Counted from the stretch's first letter, positions 56,223 through 64,000 are shown. The stretch is 64,000 nucleotides of DNA from Promethearchaeota archaeon (GCA_048938385.1 JBHLMG010000007.1:38947-102946), one strand, 5' to 3'. Notes: generated from the letters alone by a model not told the origin. Numbers and translations: made by a program.

Positions 56223-56457
56223 ATCTACTGAATGAAATTACTGCGCAAAAAAGGAACCTCCTGATGAACTGAAGGTGGGGACTCTGCAGTTATTCTCTGA
56301 GGTGAAGACCCTCAAAGCGGTTTTAGCTTGATGATTCTCTTCGCGATTTAGAAACATACGGGTTAACTGGTTAGGCTTCGCAAGTCTAGGTACGAGTGGG
56401 TTCGATAAGAGATTTTGAAAGACTACGCTCAATCGTCGATGATCATCTCAGCCCCAG

Positions 56458-56503
56458 GCCTTTGCTCTTCGGTTAGTTATCCCCCAAGAATATCCAGCAA
56501 TAT
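56458..56503 (-). pseudogene. Possible highly decayed radA 3'-region relic (relic 3)
   Basis: Minus strand CATATTGCTGGA (HIAG)...GGATA...AAGAGCAAAGGC (KSKG); needs about 7 nt of deletion to align with Rad[19 protein letters not shown]. Confidence 0.3.
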
Positions 56504-56707
56504 GCAAAATGGATGCTAAGAATAGTGAGCCAATACGCCAGCCCTGAAATTGCGTTAGATGTGGAATTTCTTAACCCCAACATACAACGCATACTTCTGA
56601 AGTGATGTAGTATGACGCTTTGGGAGATTATTGTAACCTTTATTGTACAAATGCAATGTTTATTGACTTTTTTGGATGAATCTATTGTAGTATTTTTTCA
56701 TGACTAA

Positions 56708-57451
56708 CTACAATTTTGTAGAGTTGGGCAAGGGTGAAGGCTTTGCTGATTTAGGAGATCTCTCGACTATTCGTGTATCAAAATCTACCATTTCTTGAGG
56801 TTGTTGGGAAAGTGATGGAAAAACTGTGGTTTGACCTTGCAGCACCCAACCCAGCGTTATCATAATTGCAACTATTATACCAGTTAGGGTTGCACCCCGA
56901 ACTAGAAAGACTACTTCGGCTGGATTAACTTGAGGATAAAACAACATCGGATTCAAGTTAATGAACAGAATCATGGGTGGCAAAAAAATCAGCCAAACTG
57001 ACAGACCTAATAACCACCACCATTTGACTCGATGGTATGCACACGCTTTGCAGGCAACACCATTAAAACGAAAAACTCCAATGGTCCTACTCCACGCTGG
57101 TTTGATCCGTACAAGGCATTTACTGCAAAAAGGTTGTCCACATATGGCACATCGGTCATAAGCCAACTCTTCTGAATGACTGGAACACAGAGTACCCTTC
57201 AGAAAAACCTCGGCGTGGACTCGACTTTCACGGATCAGAAACACCGCTGTAAGGATGCTTCCTAACCCTCCTGCCAGAGCAACTGTTGAAGCAAAAAGAC
57301 TCCATGGATTGTGTAAGAACCAATAATAGAGCCCCTGCGCGAAAATCAGTATGCTCGTGAGAGCGTAGAACATAGCCACCTTATAGTCAGGAGTGTTAGT
57401 ACTTGCGATCCATCGCAAAGAGGTGTCCCTCAAATTTGTCTCACTAGCCAA
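56708..57451 (-). CDS. Membrane protein with B-box-like zinc finger
   Basis: 2 TM, CSSH...CAIC...CSKC...CKAC, 2 TM. Confidence 0.78.
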   Translation of the reverse strand: MASETNLRDTSLRWIASTNTPDYKVAMFYALTSILIFAQGLYYWFLHNPWSLFASTVALAGGLGSILTAVFLIRESRVHAEVFLKGTLCSSHSEELAYDRCAICGQPFCSKCLVRIKPAWSRTIGVFRFNGVACKACAYHRVKWWWLLGLSVWLIFLPPMILFINLNPMLFYPQVNPAEVVFLVRGATLTGIIVAIMITLGWVLQGQTTVFPSLSQQPQEMVDFDTRIVERSPKSAKPSPLPNSTKL

Positions 57452-57778
57452 TTGTTTCCCTCCATTTTAATCATCACATTTCGCAGATTTATTCCTTTGC
57501 AAAGGGCACCAAGACCGCAGTGTGCACTAAGAATCTTGTCTGGAAAAGCCTTGGCTTCGACATCCTGATGCCTCCAAAAATACTCTCAGATTCCAGCATC
57601 TTCTCCTTGGTTCCCTTCTATACTTATGCCTTGGAAGAAGCGCAGCTGGAAACGCTGCAGAGACTCTTCTAACCTTTCTGGCAAAATACCAAATAATTTG
57701 TGAACGGACAAAATCACTTATTATCTTGGTTGAATAGCCTTCTCCTTTCTCGGATAATACTTTGCGGAACTGATATCC

Positions 57779-59023
57779 ATGGAACCTGAAATAAGCGATG
57801 TTAGCAGCAGGGATGAGGATGCAGGCTTAGTAATCCTCTCCCATCCGCGACGCAGTTACGCTTTCTTATTGGTTTCTAATTTTCTTTGGTTCTTTGGTTT
57901 GGGTTTGTATTCTAACTTCCTGAGCCTTTTCCTAACGGGTATTGGTGCCAGTCCTATTGATGCTGGGCTTTTCTCTTCTCTTATGATGGCCAGTGGCATT
58001 CTTTGGACGGGCTTAGGTGGCGTGCTAACGACACGGTTCGGCGTCAAACCCCTGCTAATCATTGGTTGGCTCATCGTCATCCCCGCTCCAATCTTCTATA
58101 TCTTCGCTCAATCTTTAGGTTGGCACCTCGCCCTTATCGGAGCGTTCTTTGAAGGAAGCGCGCTCCTCGCTGTTGCTCCTTTTCGCACATACACCTCGCT
58201 AGTAACGACGCAAAAACAACGAGGATTTGGCTATTCCCTTATTGCCTCATCATCAGCTATTGCAGGCATCCCGGCGCCTACTGTTGGTGGGCTCCTGATT
58301 GCGTGGTTTGGGTACAACAACCTCTTCATCTTAGTCACAATCATTTATGTCATAAGCACCGTGATGCTTATTCCCCTCACCACGGCTCAGCGAACTCAGG
58401 ACACGCAAAACCGCCAATGGCGAGGGGACTTCCTTTCCAACCGAACCTTTATTCTCGCAACTCTTTTTATGGGGGTCGTGTTTTCAATTGTCACTCTTGC
58501 TGACTTCTTCGTTCCCCTCTTTTTGAATATTAAATTCGGATTCACTGAAGCTCAAATCGGTGTTCTCTTCACGATTCTCAGTGCTAGTGGAGCCCTCTTC
58601 GGTCCTCTCTTGGGTGTTGCCGGAGATCGCTGGGGTCATGTGAAAGTGCTAACCTTCCCAATCATTGGATTGATGAGTTACTATCTCCTACTCATTCTCC
58701 TCCCATTATCGATCATGCTGCCGCTAGCGTATATAGTGCGTGGCCTCGCATTTGGTACCTATATCCTCACTAATGCGATTATCTCTCAAAAAATCCATCC
58801 CACTCAACTCCCTAACGCCTTTGCTGTACATGTTCTAGCATCTCGCGCGATTACACCTTTCACTCCGTACCTCGGGGGCATCGCTTATACTGTACATCCC
58901 GTCTTTCCCTTGTTGACCAGTGGCTTAATCCTTCCAATCAACTTTGTTATCCTCTTTCTTCTCCATCGAAGTCAACAATCCGAGGGATCAAAAAGACCTC
59001 CACTCAAAGCTTCACCATCTTAA
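57779..59023 (+). CDS. MFS transporter
   Basis: About 12 TM segments; GGVLTTRFG, GVAGDRWG. Confidence 0.9.
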   Translation: MEPEISDVSSRDEDAGLVILSHPRRSYAFLLVSNFLWFFGLGLYSNFLSLFLTGIGASPIDAGLFSSLMMASGILWTGLGGVLTTRFGVKPLLIIGWLIVIPAPIFYIFAQSLGWHLALIGAFFEGSALLAVAPFRTYTSLVTTQKQRGFGYSLIASSSAIAGIPAPTVGGLLIAWFGYNNLFILVTIIYVISTVMLIPLTTAQRTQDTQNRQWRGDFLSNRTFILATLFMGVVFSIVTLADFFVPLFLNIKFGFTEAQIGVLFTILSASGALFGPLLGVAGDRWGHVKVLTFPIIGLMSYYLLLILLPLSIMLPLAYIVRGLAFGTYILTNAIISQKIHPTQLPNAFAVHVLASRAITPFTPYLGGIAYTVHPVFPLLTSGLILPINFVILFLLHRSQQSEGSKRPPLKASPS

Positions 59024-59096
59024 TCGTGGGTCTGTGCGTATTACTGGAGTATTTCAAGGATTTTGCATAATATCCTTCACTGCAAAGGTGTATTCA

Positions 59097-59504
59097 ATGG
59101 TTCTTGAATTTATCATCGGAGTCATGGCCCTCGTCATCTTGGGTCTCCTACTGTACATCTGGTATCAGCGCCGAATGCTCGATGTTCGCGTTCGAGATCA
59201 CATCCAACGCGAACAAGACCGCATCCGAAAGGATGCTCTCACAAAGAGTCGTGCAGTTTTGAAAGGCAAAATAGCCGAGCAGATGGCTCCTCTCCTCGAG
59301 GCTTTTCCGTTCCAACCTGCTGATGCCCGCTTCATTGGTTCTCCTGTTGACTATATTGTCTTCGTTGGTTATCATAAAAATGAACCCACCGAGGTCGTCC
59401 TCGTTGACATTAAAACGGGGAACGCTCAACTCAGTCCTATTGAACGGAAAATTGAGCGCTTAGTGCAGGCTAAACGGGTTCAGTGGATGACGGTTCGGGT
59501 ATAA
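59097..59504 (+). CDS. Membrane-anchored Holliday-junction-resolvase-like endonuclease (Endonuc_Holl)
   Basis: N-terminal TM, SRAVLKGKIAEQMAP, RFIGSPVDYIVF, DIKTG. Confidence 0.88.
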   Translation: MVLEFIIGVMALVILGLLLYIWYQRRMLDVRVRDHIQREQDRIRKDALTKSRAVLKGKIAEQMAPLLEAFPFQPADARFIGSPVDYIVFVGYHKNEPTEVVLVDIKTGNAQLSPIERKIERLVQAKRVQWMTVRV

Positions 59505-59525
59505 AGCGAGTGGCATAGTTCCGTG

Positions 59526-59852
59526 CTACTTATTATGCGGTCTACGACGACAGGATCCTCCTTTGGGGCAGTAGTGTTGGATGTGGTTATCGATGATTTT
59601 GAAGAGCGGCTCCATAGTTTCGCTGTTCAAGGTGTAAATGCGTTCTTTTCCTTGCCGTTCTACAAACACGAAACCACACTGGACGAGAGGGCGAAGGTTG
59701 TGTGATACCATGCTCTGTTCTTGACCGAGGGATTGTATGATCTGCGTCACATTACTGGGTCCCTCGCGCAGGAATTCAAGGATGGCGAGTCGCGTTGGAT
59801 TACCCAAAGTGGAAAAGAATAGGTGGCAAGATTGGCTAAGTTCCGTTTTCAT
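59526..59852 (-). CDS. ArsR/SmtB family transcriptional repressor
   Basis: FSTLGNPTRLAIL, QSMVSHNL, ERQGKERIY; ATG at 59852. Confidence 0.92.
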   Translation of the reverse strand: MKTELSQSCHLFFSTLGNPTRLAILEFLREGPSNVTQIIQSLGQEQSMVSHNLRPLVQCGFVFVERQGKERIYTLNSETMEPLFKIIDNHIQHYCPKGGSCRRRPHNK

Positions 59853-59871
59853 GTTTAGGCACCGTCTTGAT

Positions 59872-59887
59872 ATGAAAGTTTTTTCAT
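59872..59887. promoter_or_regulatory. Putative ArsR/SmtB operator 1
   Basis: Perfect inverted repeat ATGAAA-GTTT-TTTCAT (TGAA-N6-TTCA). Confidence 0.6.
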
Positions 59888-59951
59888 TCATTAATCTTTA
59901 AAACTTGTGGGTTTCTAATCATTGAACCGATTATAGCGGAATGCTTAAATA

Positions 59952-59973
59952 CATATGAAATTATTCTCATATG
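59952..59973. promoter_or_regulatory. Putative ArsR/SmtB operator 2
   Basis: CATATGA-N8-TCATATG immediately downstream of TATA-like GCTTAAATA. Confidence 0.62.
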
Positions 59974-59996
59974 ATGAATATTTCAGGTGATGTTTC

Positions 59997-61220
59997 GTGA
60001 AGCGTACATCCTCCATGGACCCCGCTAGAAAGAAAGCCCTCAAAGAGATTATCAAAGATCTTCATGCCGGCTCGTCTCTCAAAGAGGTGAAAGCCAAAGC
60101 CGATGATTTACTCCGCAGTTGTACCCCCCACGAGATTGCTCAAATCGAGGAGGAGCTCATTCGTGAAGGTATGCCCGTTGAGCAAGTCCGTGAGTTTTGT
60201 GACATCCATCTGGAAGCGTTCAGAGAGGGCCTTGAAGCCAGTCAGCTCAATGTGGATGCCAGCCACCCCCTTTGGATTCTCATGGAAGAACACAAACGCC
60301 TCCTCGAATTCTGCCAGAACCTGCGTAGTCTAGCCAAGACCCTACTGCCTCTTCAGGACTTCAATACCGCCAAACAACACTGGGACGAGTTAATGCAAAT
60401 CATTGACCACTTTAAGGGAGCCGAAAATCACTACCTCCGCGAGGAGAATGTACTTTTTCCGTACCTTGAAAAACACGGCATCACCCAACCCCCTGCTATC
60501 ATGTGGGCTGAACACGATGAGATTCGAGCTCTTGAAAAACGCCTTTACACGCTAATAGATACCCATACAAAACAGGAATATGATAAATTCACTAGCGAAC
60601 TTTCTGAGCTCGCGCTTATGCTTGCGGAATTACTAGCTGGACACTTTCACAAAGAAAATAACATCCTCTTCCCAACAGCATTCCGCGTCATTACACCGAA
60701 CGAATGGATTCAAATCCGTCAAGAATTCGATGAAATTGGCTACTGCAGTTTTACACCTGAACCTAAACCCCTTCCAACCCTTTCTCCTCCTCAATCCCTC
60801 GGGGTAATCGGAAAAGGAGGGATGATCGACTTTGAGACGGGCGCGCTTTCGTTTCAGGTGATTGAAGCTATTTTCAATAATCTCCCGGTTGATATTACCT
60901 TCGTGGATGCAGAGGACCGTGTACGCTTCTACAGCGAATCTGGCGGCCGAATCTTTACCCGAACCAAGGCTGTGATCGGTCGAACGGTTCAAGCCTGCCA
61001 TCCACAAAAAAGCCTTCATAAAGTTCAACAGATTCTTGACGACTTCCGAGCTGGGAAACGAAACACTGCAGAATTTTGGATCAACCTCAAAGGACGCATG
61101 ATCTACATCCGATATTTTGCTGTTCACAATCCAGATGGAGAATACCTAGGATGCTTAGAAGTCACTCAAGATATAACCGACATCCAAAAACTCGACGGCG
61201 AGAAACGCCTTCTCGATTAG
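59997..61220 (+). CDS. DUF438 + hemerythrin + PAS domain protein
   Basis: LHAG...FCDIH, HYLREENVLFP, HFHKENNILFP, LPVDITFVD, CHPQKS. Confidence 0.92.
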   Translation: MKRTSSMDPARKKALKEIIKDLHAGSSLKEVKAKADDLLRSCTPHEIAQIEEELIREGMPVEQVREFCDIHLEAFREGLEASQLNVDASHPLWILMEEHKRLLEFCQNLRSLAKTLLPLQDFNTAKQHWDELMQIIDHFKGAENHYLREENVLFPYLEKHGITQPPAIMWAEHDEIRALEKRLYTLIDTHTKQEYDKFTSELSELALMLAELLAGHFHKENNILFPTAFRVITPNEWIQIRQEFDEIGYCSFTPEPKPLPTLSPPQSLGVIGKGGMIDFETGALSFQVIEAIFNNLPVDITFVDAEDRVRFYSESGGRIFTRTKAVIGRTVQACHPQKSLHKVQQILDDFRAGKRNTAEFWINLKGRMIYIRYFAVHNPDGEYLGCLEVTQDITDIQKLDGEKRLLD

Positions 61221-61294
61221 ACTGGCATCTCTTCTTACATAAAGGCGCGTTTTTTATCCAACTCAAGCACTTCTAGCATGAAGGATGTGGAAGA

Positions 61295-62410
61295 ATGGAA
61301 CGGTTATCCCGTGAAGCGGTCAATCATTACATCACCGGAGCTAAGGTTCTCGCCTGTGGCGGTGGAGGTAGCGAAGCGACAGCGCATCAGCGAATCAATG
61401 AAGTCTATGACGCAGGGGACTCTTTCCAGATGGTGAGCTTGCAGGAGGTTCCTGACGATGAACTCCTCTTCATCGTTGGCACCGTGGGCGGAGGAATCAG
61501 TCAAGAGGCTAAGCAGCTAGTAGCTCAGCTTCCCCGTGCACCGACTGATCTTTATGTCGATGCTGCGCAACGGCTTACCGAGTATTTAGGATGTGAACCC
61601 TTTGGCTTCATCGCCAGCGAGATTGGACCTGGGAATGGCGTGGTCCCAATGTATGTGGCGGCGAAATTAGGAAAGGTGGTCATCGATGCTGATTGTTGTG
61701 GTCGGGCAAAACCGGAAATCGCCATCTCCACCACAAACCTAGCTGGATTAGCTATCACTCCGCTATCAATGGTCTCACCCTACGGCGATTTCATGATTCT
61801 AAAGGACGCTGTGGATGATGCCCGTGCTGAAGTGATTACTCGTCATGTTGCAATCGCGTCCGGTGGCACAGTTGGAGTGGCACGATGCCCCGCAACTGGA
61901 AAACAATATCGGCATGCAGCTATTGATGGTTCGATCACCAGGTGTATCTCGTTGGGACGAGTAATTGTTGAATCCCGAGAAAAAGGTGAAAATGTCATAG
62001 AAAGAATACTAGCCTTTACCAGTGGACTCACCCTCTTTACCGGTAGGATAACCCGACTTCAACTTGTTGAGGAAGGTGGATTTACCACCGGCACTGTTGA
62101 ATTCTCAGGGGTGCTTCAGGCGGGTGAAATGCAGGGACAGGAAGTAACCTTACGGATTTGGTTCAAGAACGAATACCTCGCCGTTTGGTACAATAACACA
62201 CCCTTAGGAACTTCCCCTGATTCTATTTGCGTGATCGATGCCATAACCGGTGAAGGCGTCCCAATCACCAGAGAAGAGTTAAGAAACCATCGAGAGGTAT
62301 CAATCATCGGAATTCCTGCCGCTCCACAATGGCACACCCCTCAAGGACTTGAACTCTTTGGACCCACCCACTTCCAACTACCCACGAAATATACACCCTT
62401 TCCAAAATAG
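61295..62410 (+). CDS. DUF917 family protein
   Basis: GAKVLACGGGG, EIGPGN, DADCCGRAKPE, FKNEYL, PDSI. Confidence 0.9.
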   Translation: MERLSREAVNHYITGAKVLACGGGGSEATAHQRINEVYDAGDSFQMVSLQEVPDDELLFIVGTVGGGISQEAKQLVAQLPRAPTDLYVDAAQRLTEYLGCEPFGFIASEIGPGNGVVPMYVAAKLGKVVIDADCCGRAKPEIAISTTNLAGLAITPLSMVSPYGDFMILKDAVDDARAEVITRHVAIASGGTVGVARCPATGKQYRHAAIDGSITRCISLGRVIVESREKGENVIERILAFTSGLTLFTGRITRLQLVEEGGFTTGTVEFSGVLQAGEMQGQEVTLRIWFKNEYLAVWYNNTPLGTSPDSICVIDAITGEGVPITREELRNHREVSIIGIPAAPQWHTPQGLELFGPTHFQLPTKYTPFPK

Positions 62411-62451
62411 GGTCCGTTCACCTCCGCTCAGGATAAATTCCTTTTAGTGCA

Positions 62452-62506
62452 CATCTATATCCGCGTCGACGCCGCATGGCCAGCAATGTGCCTTTCTATC
62501 AGGCGT
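62452..62506 (-). pseudogene. Decayed radA fragment (relic 2)
   Basis: Minus strand reads TPDR-(frameshift)-HIAGHAASTRI*M versus Rad[22 protein letters not shown] at 63821-63883. Confidence 0.65.
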
Positions 62507-62534
62507 TCTGGAATTCAAAGTGGAATACAGTTTC

Positions 62535-62681
62535 TCAACGCTTCAGATACTTTTCAGGATTCTCCTCAAAGGCAGTTTTACATCCGGGAGCGCAGAAGTA
62601 GTACACTTTACCTTTGTATGTGGACTTGTACTTCGCTGTGTCTTCGTCCACTTCCATGTTACAAACTAGATCTCGGGCCAA
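62535..62681 (-). CDS. YHS/TRASH domain metal-binding protein
   Basis: ARDLVCNMEVD...YKGKVYYFCAPGCKTAFEENPEKY; GAGGTGA upstream of the TTG. Confidence 0.9.
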   Translation of the reverse strand: MARDLVCNMEVDEDTAKYKSTYKGKVYYFCAPGCKTAFEENPEKYLKR

Positions 62682-62833
62682 CAAAATCACCTCATTTTTT
62701 TTTGGAATCTCGTGCTGAACCATTTCAGTCTTGATCTGGCTTTATTTACACTTTTCGAATTGCTTACGGCATGTGAAAAACACCGTCGAATTCAGCATCA
62801 CCAAAGACTTTGTCACTGATTTTCTACAGAACC

Positions 62834-62917
62834 CTATGCATCCGCAATACCTTGCACCGTAATTGTGAAGAGCATTTCACCCTCCAGCAAGTAGAGCGAG
62901 TCAATCAATGTTGCAAC
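62834..62917 (-). pseudogene. Duplicated, decayed radA 3' end (relic 1)
   Basis: Minus strand VATLIDSLYLLEGEMLFTITVQGIADA* versus Rad[28 protein letters not shown]; by hand 64/84 nt identical to 63713-63796, ungapped. Confidence 0.92.
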
Positions 62918-62973
62918 CTAGTGTTCCAACCTGTCTATCTATACAGAAATTTTACAATAGCCTTCGTGATTTT

Positions 62974-63633
62974 TTATATCAACTTTTTAGGGTCAAACAA
63001 TCGGGATTCGATGCTTCGCTGTTCTTTTGGTATAACAGAGAGTGGAGTATTGAGGATACGATTGAGTCTACGATTAGCCCACAAACCTAAAACAACTAAG
63101 AACGCCCAGACGAGTACAGAAACCAAGACCAGAAGTGGAACTGTTAGGCAAAGTCCGATGGCAAATACAGACAGGATGATATAGAGTACCCAGAAATTCC
63201 TAATCCGTCGTCGGGCGCAATCCTGACAGGCCACGCCATCAAACGCGAACATGCCTACTGAAGAGGTCATGGTTTGCTTAATCCGCACAAGGTGTTCAAG
63301 ACATTCTAAGCGACCGCAAATGGCACACCAATCGTACGCGAATTGGTTTTGGTCGCTAGCACAAAGACTTCCCTTCGGAAAGGGGGATCGATGTACACGA
63401 GCTCCATCCCAGAAGAAGAATAAGGCACCTCCAAAAATAATCGCTCCAAACCACACGATGCCATTCATGAACCATCGAATTTCAATTAGCGGTGACAACC
63501 CACTGGCATTAAGGTATAATCCACTGGTAAGAAACAGAAATCCTAGGATAAGCCAAAAAGTAGCCAACAACCAATAGCGGCTATTCGTACTCTTTACTAA
63601 CTGAATTTGTCCTTTCTCTGATGGCTCATCCAC
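62974..63633 (-). CDS. Membrane protein with B-box-like zinc finger (paralog of 56708-57451)
   Basis: KGSLCASD...AYDWCAICG...LVRIK...GVACQDCA. Confidence 0.78.
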   Translation of the reverse strand: MDEPSEKGQIQLVKSTNSRYWLLATFWLILGFLFLTSGLYLNASGLSPLIEIRWFMNGIVWFGAIIFGGALFFFWDGARVHRSPFPKGSLCASDQNQFAYDWCAICGRLECLEHLVRIKQTMTSSVGMFAFDGVACQDCARRRIRNFWVLYIILSVFAIGLCLTVPLLVLVSVLVWAFLVVLGLWANRRLNRILNTPLSVIPKEQRSIESRLFDPKKLI

Positions 63634-63712
63634 TTGAAAACACCATCCCTATCCTGTTCTTCGCATCTCGCCCTTAAAAACACTAATGGCTTTTCTTTTC
63701 AAAAATAAAATT

Positions 63713-64000
63713 CTACGCATCCGCGATACCCTGCGCTGTAATGGTGAAGAGGGCTTCACCTTCAGGTAAGTAGGGTGAATCGATTAATGTCGCAATCCGA
63801 CGCTCTGCCTTGCTCTTCCGCAAGTAAATCCGCGTCTGTGCAGCATGTGCTACAATATGGCCGCCAGTCGGACGGTCAGGCGCGCCGAAAAATACGTCAG
63901 GTTGCGCATGCACTTGATTTGTCGTGACGACGGCGATGTTGGTGACTTCGGCGACGCGGAGGAGGTCGTGGAGGTGTTTGTTGAGTTTTTGTTGGCGTTC
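63713..64000 (-). CDS. radA: DNA repair and recombination protein RadA, 3' part (runs off the window)
   Basis: [13 protein letters not shown]...TNQV...PTGGHIVAH...RIYLRKSK...[11 protein letters not shown]. Confidence 0.95.

Follow-up and report, generated by a model that had tools for sequence, protein, structure and literature searches.

An integron consists of an IntI recombinase gene and an attI site next to its array, with attC hairpins between the cassettes. In intron and intein homing the flanking exons are co-converted, and 'intronless homing' is carried out by free-standing endonucleases; homing normally neither duplicates the downstream exon nor brings in neighbouring genes. Homology-facilitated illegitimate recombination usually deletes recipient DNA and predicts no fixed limit at one codon, and casposon or transposon insertion is marked by a short target-site duplication (about 14-15 bp) and terminal inverted repeats. 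Integrative elements are known to replace the 3' end of a gene by DNA that they insert. Of 68 thaumarchaeal elements, 14 were integrated into the 3'-distal parts of protein genes, and arrays at one site are known (PMC6563490). The present analysis concerns radA, the gene of the cell's main recombinase, in a stretch of 64,000 nucleotides (nt) from Promethearchaeota archaeon (GCA_048938385.1 JBHLMG010000007.1:38947-102946), called the window in the following, in which all coordinates without a contig name are counted. Behind radA, displaced copies of its 3' end (tails; relics where decayed) alternate with small accessory genes. The segment 62448-63882 is read as the proximal end of a radA-anchored array, built by serial insertion of a radA 3' segment plus cargo at the boundary of codons 256 and 257; the probability of this reading is estimated at roughly 0.55.

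As in the thaumarchaeal elements, the units at radA supply a replacement gene end with stop codon, the old end lies at the far side as a direct repeat, the site is used repeatedly and relatives feature an empty site. Unlike these elements, the units carry no integrase or mobile-element gene, comprise 0.46-1.3 kb with zero to two genes and target radA in an Asgard lineage, while their repeats are long (65-170 nt), diverged and without a preserved exact core and have their 5' limit at the position of a predicted RNA intron. The small, mostly single-gene units, co-oriented in the window's genome, the one fixed anchor, the toxin-antitoxin and membrane-protein cargo and a circular form that may exist in a metagenome (contig L229, see below) resemble integron arrays. 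In contrast to these, no IntI-type recombinase stands beside radA, the boundary is the coding end of the anchor gene instead of a palindromic attC, and the relics, as single-stranded DNA, fold no better than shuffles (z -1.2, -0.9, +0.5). Similar to homing, the events centre on an intron site, the intron is polymorphic among close relatives and the adjacent exon is a mosaic; unlike in homing, the downstream exon is duplicated, genes are carried in, and a LAGLIDADG search found no homing-endonuclease open reading frame (ORF) in the predicted introns of 29-59 nt or near radA. A conserved gene as homologous anchor, an apparently illegitimate other joint and the uptake of foreign genes without an element-borne recombinase recall homology-facilitated illegitimate recombination, from which the radA locus differs by keeping the duplicated anchor end and by the limitation of its relics at one codon. 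A casposon or transposon is not matched, as no inverted repeats bound the units and their repeats are 65-170 nt of coding sequence, with Cas1 itself not searched. The unusual traits are one- and two-gene units without a recombinase, the cell's main recombinase gene as anchor and the fact that no repeat passes the intron position.

Displaced radA ends in the window

The window corresponds to G000:C33:38947-102946, with G000 denoting its own genome, a metagenome-assembled genome (MAG) of 51 contigs and 2.48 Mb whose closest public relatives are Hermodarchaeota/Promethearchaeota MAGs. Contig C33 breaks off inside radA, and the N-terminal 217 codons are found at the start of contig C2; both contigs abut with a 2-nt overlap and together encode a RadA of 312 amino acids (aa). 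The radA-proximal features are as follows:

63713..64000, minus strand: radA 3' part, last 95 codons and stop (Pfam Rad51 positions 146-244)
63713..63882, minus strand: live radA tail unit, codons 257-312, equivalent to exon 2 of relatives with a predicted intron; nearest allele in genome G008
63713..63796, minus strand: portion of the live tail repeated in relic 1 (direct repeat, spacing 879 nt, 77% identity)
62974..63633, minus strand: BboxTM1, cargo gene 1, membrane protein of 219 aa whose Cys-rich loop is Zn-ribbon/B-box-like
62834..62917, minus strand: relic 1, displaced radA tail, codons ~285-312 and stop, 5' part missing (nhmmer)
62535..62723, minus strand: YHS-domain protein of 62 aa, cargo gene 2 (Pfam YHS, E 4e-17)
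62448..62512, minus strand: relic 2, older radA tail fragment, codons ~258-279, 3' part lost (nhmmer profile)

Relic 1, already recognized as a copy of the radA 3' end in the first-pass annotation, is an ungapped match of 83-84 nt with 76-77% identity to 63713-63796 and the stop codon in register. It was recovered by tblastn (E 2.7e-8) as well as by nhmmer (E 2e-15) with a profile of 13 radA 3' ends, 12 from the genus and one (G017) from a sister genus. The relic possesses no start codon, has stops upstream and lacks the first 28 codons of exon 2; its frame is open, with Pro replaced by Leu twice and Ala by Met once at residues that are invariant among live RadA tails. Relic 1 and the live tail differ at 13.7 of 20.2 synonymous (proportion pS 0.68) and at 6.3 of 60.8 non-synonymous sites (pN 0.10), which resembles the divergence between tails of different species (pS 0.69-0.89) plus a few replacements at invariant residues. 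Neutral decay after a local duplication with a pN of 0.10 would predict a pS of about 0.2, and relic 1 is thus no local copy; the combination of pS 0.68 with pN 0.10 implies that another lineage was the source of one of these tails. Judged from these substitutions, relic 1 and the live tail diverged as functional alleles.

Relic 2 escapes single-sequence searches (tblastn E 3.4, with an equally unconvincing stringent alignment) and was detected by the genus profile at 15.6-15.8 bits over profile positions 120-184, with an E of 0.003 over the 2.48-Mb genome and the next chance match at 6.8 bits. In 2000 dinucleotide shuffles of the surrounding intergenic region the score stayed at or below 2.6 bits, so that the fragment clearly surpasses shuffled intergenic DNA, and a covariance model described below also matched it at positions 3-74. 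It begins at the exon-2 boundary and represents a part of RadA upstream of the segment covered by relic 1, as had been proposed before; it carries 8 replacements in 18 codons and an in-frame stop. A third fragment had been suspected at 56458-56503. This candidate was rejected, since it gave no tblastn signal and no nhmmer match at E<=100, neither genome-wide nor in its own intergenic region, and its Smith-Waterman score ranked 182 of 1696 tiles, i.e., within noise. The postulated increase of decay with distance from radA consequently holds for the two real relics and loses its third point.

The longest identical runs between tail repeat copies comprise 8-9 nt, and decay could have erased an exact core. 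No similarity was seen between the 110 nt that follow relic 1 and the post-radA DNA of 12 relatives (z <= 2). A scan with the tails of 2106 ORFs revealed no other non-coding downstream tail relic in G000. A hairpin in the live tail was considered as a recombination-site candidate (z -2 to -2.8) and discarded, as it was judged not conserved in the aligned tails of relatives.

Misassembly, which would have undermined the whole arrangement, is contradicted by independent assemblies, because the same gene order occurs on a 67.9-kb Logan contig and on unitigs of another run. The contig break in radA falls within a stretch of 129 nt identical to G008 and is explained by it, as interspecies-identical stretches are the sort of sequence that breaks metagenome assemblies. 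Contigs from the source-study runs X1 and X3 contain no joint that skips the BboxTM1 unit; in a mangrove run of another study, one contig of 3.5x joins 62771 to 63713, leaving out BboxTM1 and relic 1, though one side of this joint comprises only 31 nt. The unitig that covers the BboxTM1 unit in run X1 has its two ends at corresponding places in the repeat copies (62897 and 63776) and a depth of 9.7 compared with 13.1-14.1 in its flanks. The lower depth over 62897-63776 could reflect a subpopulation without the unit, or chance.

Recurrence in relatives and metagenomes

Twelve genomes of the genus have a radA contig, and in these the gene content returns to a backbone of five to six genes at a distance of 9-10 kb downstream of radA. 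The radA-proximal stretch varies within the genus, so that the constant gene order that would have spoken against insertion is not found: it mostly contains Endonuc_Holl and DUF438 genes, in some genomes a flavin reductase and S-Me-THD gene, and lineage-specific genes stand next to radA in G012, G013, G001, G010 and G000. G014 has a tail relic of its own 385 nt after radA (nhmmer E 1.8e-7), located 26 nt from the stop of a convergent flavin-reductase gene, the place at which G002, G005 and G006 feature their intact tail (44 nt from the same stop). Consequently, G014 received a 462-nt insertion that brought a new tail and no gene, and the three other genomes represent the empty site. The arrangement of G014 is repeated in a second assembly (L252). 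That its 382-nt insert might be a multicopy mini-element was also considered and dismissed, since the genus contains a single copy.

More relics came to light when 19 genomes of the order were scanned with a covariance model built from sequence alone for the last 170 nt of radA, at G013:C349:2767-2876 (E 7e-12) and G005:C322:3481-3604 (E 5.5e-6). A convergent gene end lies 8-44 nt behind the tail relics of G013, G005 and G014 (8-40 nt for the first two), and the two contigs G013:C349 and G005:C322 have gene families in common with the radA-downstream zone of other genomes. Among 80 radA loci across Archaea, each scanned with its own tail, a same-strand downstream relic was found at the G014 locus only.

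Tails also occur in metagenomes. A degenerate pattern of 11 residues from the tail motif retrieved 59 JGI contigs, most of which are ordinary radA genes and four of which carry tails without a gene body. In L201, a 98%-identical tail starts exactly at profile position 119, preceded by unrelated DNA and followed by flavin-reductase and Endonuc_Holl genes. L229 (Ga0153915_10126401) bears two tails 1166 nt apart with a VapB-like/PIN pair between them (PIN E 9.5e-16; the VapB-like match is weak, E 0.033) and two membrane-protein genes thereafter; L196 extends it into a third tail, and L209 features the tail-VapBC unit behind a different upstream sequence. The order in these three contigs is tail, VapBC-like pair, tail, two membrane genes, tail. 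As the ends of the 2746-nt L229 are identical over 116 nt (2629-2744 repeats 1-116), it would represent either a 2.6-kb circle or a collapsed tandem repeat. A homologue of the VapB-like gene follows an intact radA in L207, and the unit therefore looks like a tail together with the radA-downstream genes of its donor. At the protein level, several of the metagenome tails share 88-98% identity with live tails. In addition, three metagenome radA loci (L203, L226 and L236; ~58% identical) contain an insertion of ~1.0-1.2 kb between RadA residues 107 and 112, which is taken to be an intein unrelated to the tail phenomenon.

The radA gene of G000 itself shows a mosaic identity pattern. Its live tail is nearest to that of G008 (pS 0.30), and the 5' 450 nt reject a clade of G000 and G008 (approximately unbiased (AU) test, p 0.005; the clade was picked after the identities had been seen). 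The two genes differ at 6 positions in nt 450-705 (0 in 577-705), and nt 706-768 and nt 769-939 contain 14 mismatches each; the identity pattern switches at nt 768-786. The tree of the 3' 219 nt was unresolved, with G008+G001 not rejected (AU p 0.19). Within the gene, nt 577-705 (window 63947-64000 and C2:3-77) are identical in G000 and G008 over 129 nt, though the genes differ by 11% overall, and in nt 450-720 several species pairs reach 96-100% identity. Such high mid-gene identity indicates recent interspecies exchange inside radA.

Taken together, the allelic divergence, the variable gene order, the relics in G014, G013 and G005, the empty site and the metagenome arrays corroborate the central proposal of the first-pass annotation, i.e., that radA is a recurrent insertion site at which a replacement 3' end is supplied and the displaced one is left at the far boundary. 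Its extension to the entire accessory patchwork of 50-63.6 kb was not upheld. The radA anchoring signatures end at 62.45 kb, and below ~62.4 kb the region is variable in the genus without any radA signature; moreover, S-Me-THD, DUF438 and Endonuc_Holl belong to the backbone.

The predicted intron position and the proposed route of insertion

One trait had not been noticed in the first-pass annotation: no relic or orphan tail reaches upstream of profile position 119 (Pro257), which is where a bulge-helix-bulge (BHB) intron is predicted in relatives, and the tail of L201 (position 119) and relic 2 (position 120) start there. The other tails begin at positions 129, 137, 141, ~170, ~195 and ~205, so that most lack the first 10-90 nt of exon 2.

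The intron prediction is based on radA insertions of 59, 29 and 50 nt in G007, L207 and L212, respectively, each placed after FFG and before PDRPTGG (L124:673-733 for G007, L207:3214-3242 and L212:~765-815 on the minus strand; equivalent to window ~63881-63885). The three insertions are unrelated in sequence, and none has a length divisible by three. A 3-nt bulge, a 4-bp helix and a second 3-nt bulge can be assigned in all three, partly by manual reading. The minimum-energy fold of L207 contains the 4-bp helix and the 5' 3-nt bulge (z -4.4), with the 3' bulge being read out of a 7-nt internal loop. In G007 (z -4.9), the canonical 3-4-3 register needs a shift and one G-U instead of a G-C pair, and in L212 (z -1.3) the 5' bulge lies beside a 5-bp helix, the 4-bp central helix and the 3' bulge being assigned by hand. 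For the crenarchaeal cbf5 pre-mRNA intron, cuts are predicted between the second and third bulge nucleotides (PMC2738675). Splicing predicted by this rule yields the in-frame 12-residue product FFG(A/T)PDRPTGGH from all three genes, with G007 and L212 alike and L207 giving the other variant; the predicted junction of L212 lies one codon upstream of those of G007 and L207. On the strength of position, folding and restored frame, the three insertions are likely BHB introns in radA pre-mRNA.

As of 2009, cbf5 was the only case of confirmed archaeal pre-mRNA BHB splicing reported in the searchable literature (PMC2738675), and Asgard tRNA genes were described to gain BHB introns often (bioRxiv 10.64898/2026.10.13.758758). 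A published report of a BHB intron in radA was not found in the literature searched. Like the cbf5 intron, the radA insertions are present or absent in a lineage-specific manner. They differ from it in gene and lineage (radA in Asgard archaea), in being absent from the window's own genome and in the coincidence of their site with a hotspot of DNA-level insertion. Such an intron is of interest on its own account, as BHB introns make gene callers report radA as broken or frameshifted. The radA of G000 itself is intron-free, and relic 2 nonetheless starts at the intron site. The mosaic switch at nt 768-786 is compatible with the same position.

According to the preferred reading of serial insertion, two events would have occurred in this lineage, each of them bringing a foreign radA 3' segment and an accompanying gene to or just behind codons 256/257. 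The incoming tail would complete the radA reading frame, and the previous tail would be displaced downstream and decay there. Relic 2 would then be the oldest tail, probably the original one beside the S-Me-THD gene, after deletion of its distal part and probably of a flavin-reductase gene; relic 1 and the YHS gene would form the middle unit, its tail eroded on the 5' side, and the live tail with BboxTM1 the newest. The mobile unit would consist of radA exon 2 plus downstream genes, bounded by the BHB intron position of the relatives. Two routes may lead to this result. Either foreign DNA served to repair a break at the junction, the left end being joined by homology within the radA body and the right end illegitimately once the old exon 2 had been eroded to some extent, or small tail-bearing circles such as the 2.6-kb circular-assembling L229 entered by a single crossover.

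In both cases, repair or recombination would be anchored in radA and need no element-borne integrase, and this is the favoured solution, the joining mechanism being one that we infer. Plain homologous recombination would use the better mid-gene homology and leave long relics; none were seen, which favours events starting at the junction. The most specific version, an integrase-independent gene capture tied to the BHB intron site in radA of Hermodarchaeota-like Asgard archaea, with units of exon 2 and cargo entering at the junction through break repair or as small circles like L229, leaving radA intact and accumulating as an array of displaced 3' exons, can be put forward only tentatively, with the odds against it. 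If this causal version were true, it would link two topics that are mostly considered separately, archaeal RNA-level introns and the gain of genes at the DNA level in the prokaryotes closest to eukaryotes, and provide a concrete, testable locus for the uptake of accessory genes by Asgard genomes. The integrase-independent reading would further imply a cassette system in which the cell's own recombinase gene provides, with its coding end, the site of recombination.

Several points weigh against serial insertion at the intron junction. As the radA of G000 is intronless, the presumed link to the intron site is drawn from the relatives and from boundaries that coincide. Both relic 1 and that of G014 begin ~75-90 nt inside exon 2, for which extra erosion or another crossover must be assumed, and the same applies to the deletion of the distal part of relic 2. 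The mosaic breakpoint is placed only within nt 768-786, and the clade tested was chosen with knowledge of the identities. Among the genus genomes, no donor was found in which radA is directly followed by BboxTM1 or YHS, and the relic-bearing contigs of G013 and G005 are not physically linked to the radA contigs of these genomes. L229 may be either a circle or a tandem repeat. Finally, no enzyme was identified, as neither the window nor the surroundings of radA in any relative contain an integrase, transposase or homing endonuclease.

With regard to this last point, every ORF lying between radA and the relics was scanned with Pfam in G000, G012, G013, G014, L229 and L201, and no integrase was detected, in agreement with the earlier statement that none is visible in the window. 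Integrase-bearing elements with a radA tail, for which a search had been suggested, were not encountered in IMG/VR, where no viral contig carried the tail motif as peptide or degenerate DNA pattern, and an exact 27-mer of the relic-1 flank was absent from the JGI metagenomes. Genomes of the genus commonly encode LAGLIDADG domains, with 1-17 matches each and 2 in G000; most of these lie within long ORFs and are read as inteins there. None occurs on any radA contig, with other endonuclease families not searched.

Of the alternatives, site-specific integration survives best and is possible, if improbable. Elements with a tyrosine (or other) recombinase and an attP mimicking the last 85-170 nt of radA would have integrated serially, each being trimmed by later deletions until at most one gene was left, which would make the locus a decayed att-site array comparable with those at tRNA genes and in the 3'-distal ends of thaumarchaeal protein genes. 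In its topology, the locus matches attL/attR with a replacement 3' end exactly; in G000 and G014 an insert lies between direct repeats of which one is the 3' end of the target gene. Furthermore, one-site arrays and integration in 3'-distal parts of protein genes are documented (PMC6563490), some genus genomes possess extra tyrosine recombinases, and all relics are short 3' ends though the best homology is found mid-gene (96-100%), which would point to a defined site. However, no integrase or mobile-element gene was found in or beside the five relic-bounded inserts or the metagenome arrays, the only PF00589 match of G000 is a single XerA-like recombinase on contig C26, and the contigs bearing the extra recombinases carry no radA-like sequence. 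The lack of a recombinase in the units and of tails on viral or recombinase contigs, the lack of a preserved exact core (8-9 nt runs) and relic 5' ends ranging from profile position 119 to ~205 argue against a classical integrase-borne element.

A functional role of the tails is far less probable still. They would serve as silent alternative 3' exons or cassettes, BHB-spliced or gene-converted to vary the RadA C-terminus, with the cargo genes as passengers. The open frame of relic 1 with its stop in register, the high protein identity of several metagenome tails to live tails (88-98%) and the coincidence of the unit boundary with a predicted splice site in relatives would suit such a function, but relic 1 has replacements at invariant residues and misses the first 28 exon-2 codons, relic 2 is degraded and interrupted by an in-frame stop, and most tails, missing the first 10-90 nt of exon 2, cannot restore PDRPTGGH. 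Purely local events, i.e., tandem duplication of the radA end with subsequent decay or an assembly or binning artefact, might be suspected from close-set direct repeats in a 51-contig MAG with a break inside radA and are largely refuted by a pS/pN ratio incompatible with neutral decay of a local copy, by the concordant Logan contig and unitigs, by the G008-identical stretch that explains the break and by the recurrence of relics in other genomes and assemblies.

Cargo genes, backbone neighbours and further loci

Farther downstream of radA, the following features were assigned:

61295..62410, plus strand: S-Me-THD-like gene, convergent on the relics (Pfam)
59997..61220, plus strand: DUF438-hemerythrin-PAS gene (Pfam)
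58944..59504, plus strand: Endonuc_Holl (PF10107) nuclease-like gene with N-terminal membrane helix (Pfam E 1.6e-35)
56708..57451, minus strand: BboxTM2, second BboxTM paralogue, no radA signature alongside
56458..56503, minus strand: the unsupported 'relic 3' of the first-pass annotation (no nhmmer match)

Beyond relic 2, the S-Me-THD-like and DUF438-hemerythrin-PAS genes, which point towards radA, are followed by an ArsR regulator gene on the minus strand and by Endonuc_Holl and an MFS gene, likewise convergent on radA, and then by BboxTM2, DUF169 and others. The radA-downstream region of the window contains no tRNA and no Rfam match. A segment of 485 nt (56223-56707) is free of ORFs of at least 65 aa, tRNA, Rfam matches and radA similarity.

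Orthologues of the S-Me-THD gene are located downstream of radA past the flavin-reductase gene (G002, G005, G006) or past other inserted genes (G013), and S-Me-THD is a probable ancestral neighbour of radA. The DUF438 gene is found downstream of radA in 10 relatives, and Endonuc_Holl near radA in 8 relatives (7 of the genus and G017) as well as in L201. As common neighbours of radA in the relatives, the three genes are assigned to the backbone and not to the cargo. The conserved pairing of a Holliday-junction-resolvase-like nuclease with a recombinase gene is odd in itself, and Endonuc_Holl is a candidate for a nuclease acting in the insertions.

With regard to the cargo, the two genes initially labelled as B-box membrane proteins proved to be paralogues (E 1e-20, 33-48% identical), while the B-box label remains weakly supported: BboxTM1 belongs to no Pfam family, and its Cys-rich middle (Atlas model) resembles small Zn-ribbon/B-box-like proteins at a low query TM-score of 0.27-0.33. 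Only 8 relatives of BboxTM1 were detected among 5.8e9 proteins; it is represented in 6 of 14 genus genomes, at other loci, and the exact protein is on record in no other context. Members of the BboxTM family reside in ordinary chromosomal settings without a radA tail, and neither nhmmer nor the shuffle test gave a tail match near BboxTM2. The YHS assignment of the first reading was confirmed by Pfam. In relatives, a stand-alone YHS gene lies ~3 kb from a Cu P-type ATPase gene, where none was found in G000 (G000:C51:31807); the only stand-alone YHS gene of G000 is the radA-adjacent cargo copy (62535-62723), which is 55-66% identical to the copies of the relatives.

The possibility that BboxTM genes are cassettes with long target duplications was pursued at G003:C3 and G002:C79 and rejected, as the flanking repeats were explained otherwise, namely by a conserved upstream element of the family with a partial 3' copy and by dispersed intergenic repeats of a variable catalase locus. 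The family element comprises ~80 nt, is situated ~140 nt upstream of the start and has a partial copy at the 3' end (L130:55-147 and 989-1079; L187-L194; L155:2172-2242). It is 80-93% identical across different genomic contexts and might represent a leader, regulatory RNA or the end of an element. At the catalase locus (L152, G002:C79:3600-6300; L160, G006:C39:60000-68000), accessory genes including a toxin-antitoxin-looking two-gene pair, a BboxTM copy and others are arranged between dispersed intergenic repeats of 50-190 nt.

A further apparent relic, a tRNA 3' end in G011, turned out to be the T-arm of a second, intron-containing tRNA. This tRNA (L129:2289-2427 in G011:C22) has one or more long intervening sequences and was missed by ARAGORN; it lies between a tRNA-Thr, a BboxTM gene and a 5S rRNA gene, with TnpB-like ORFs nearby.

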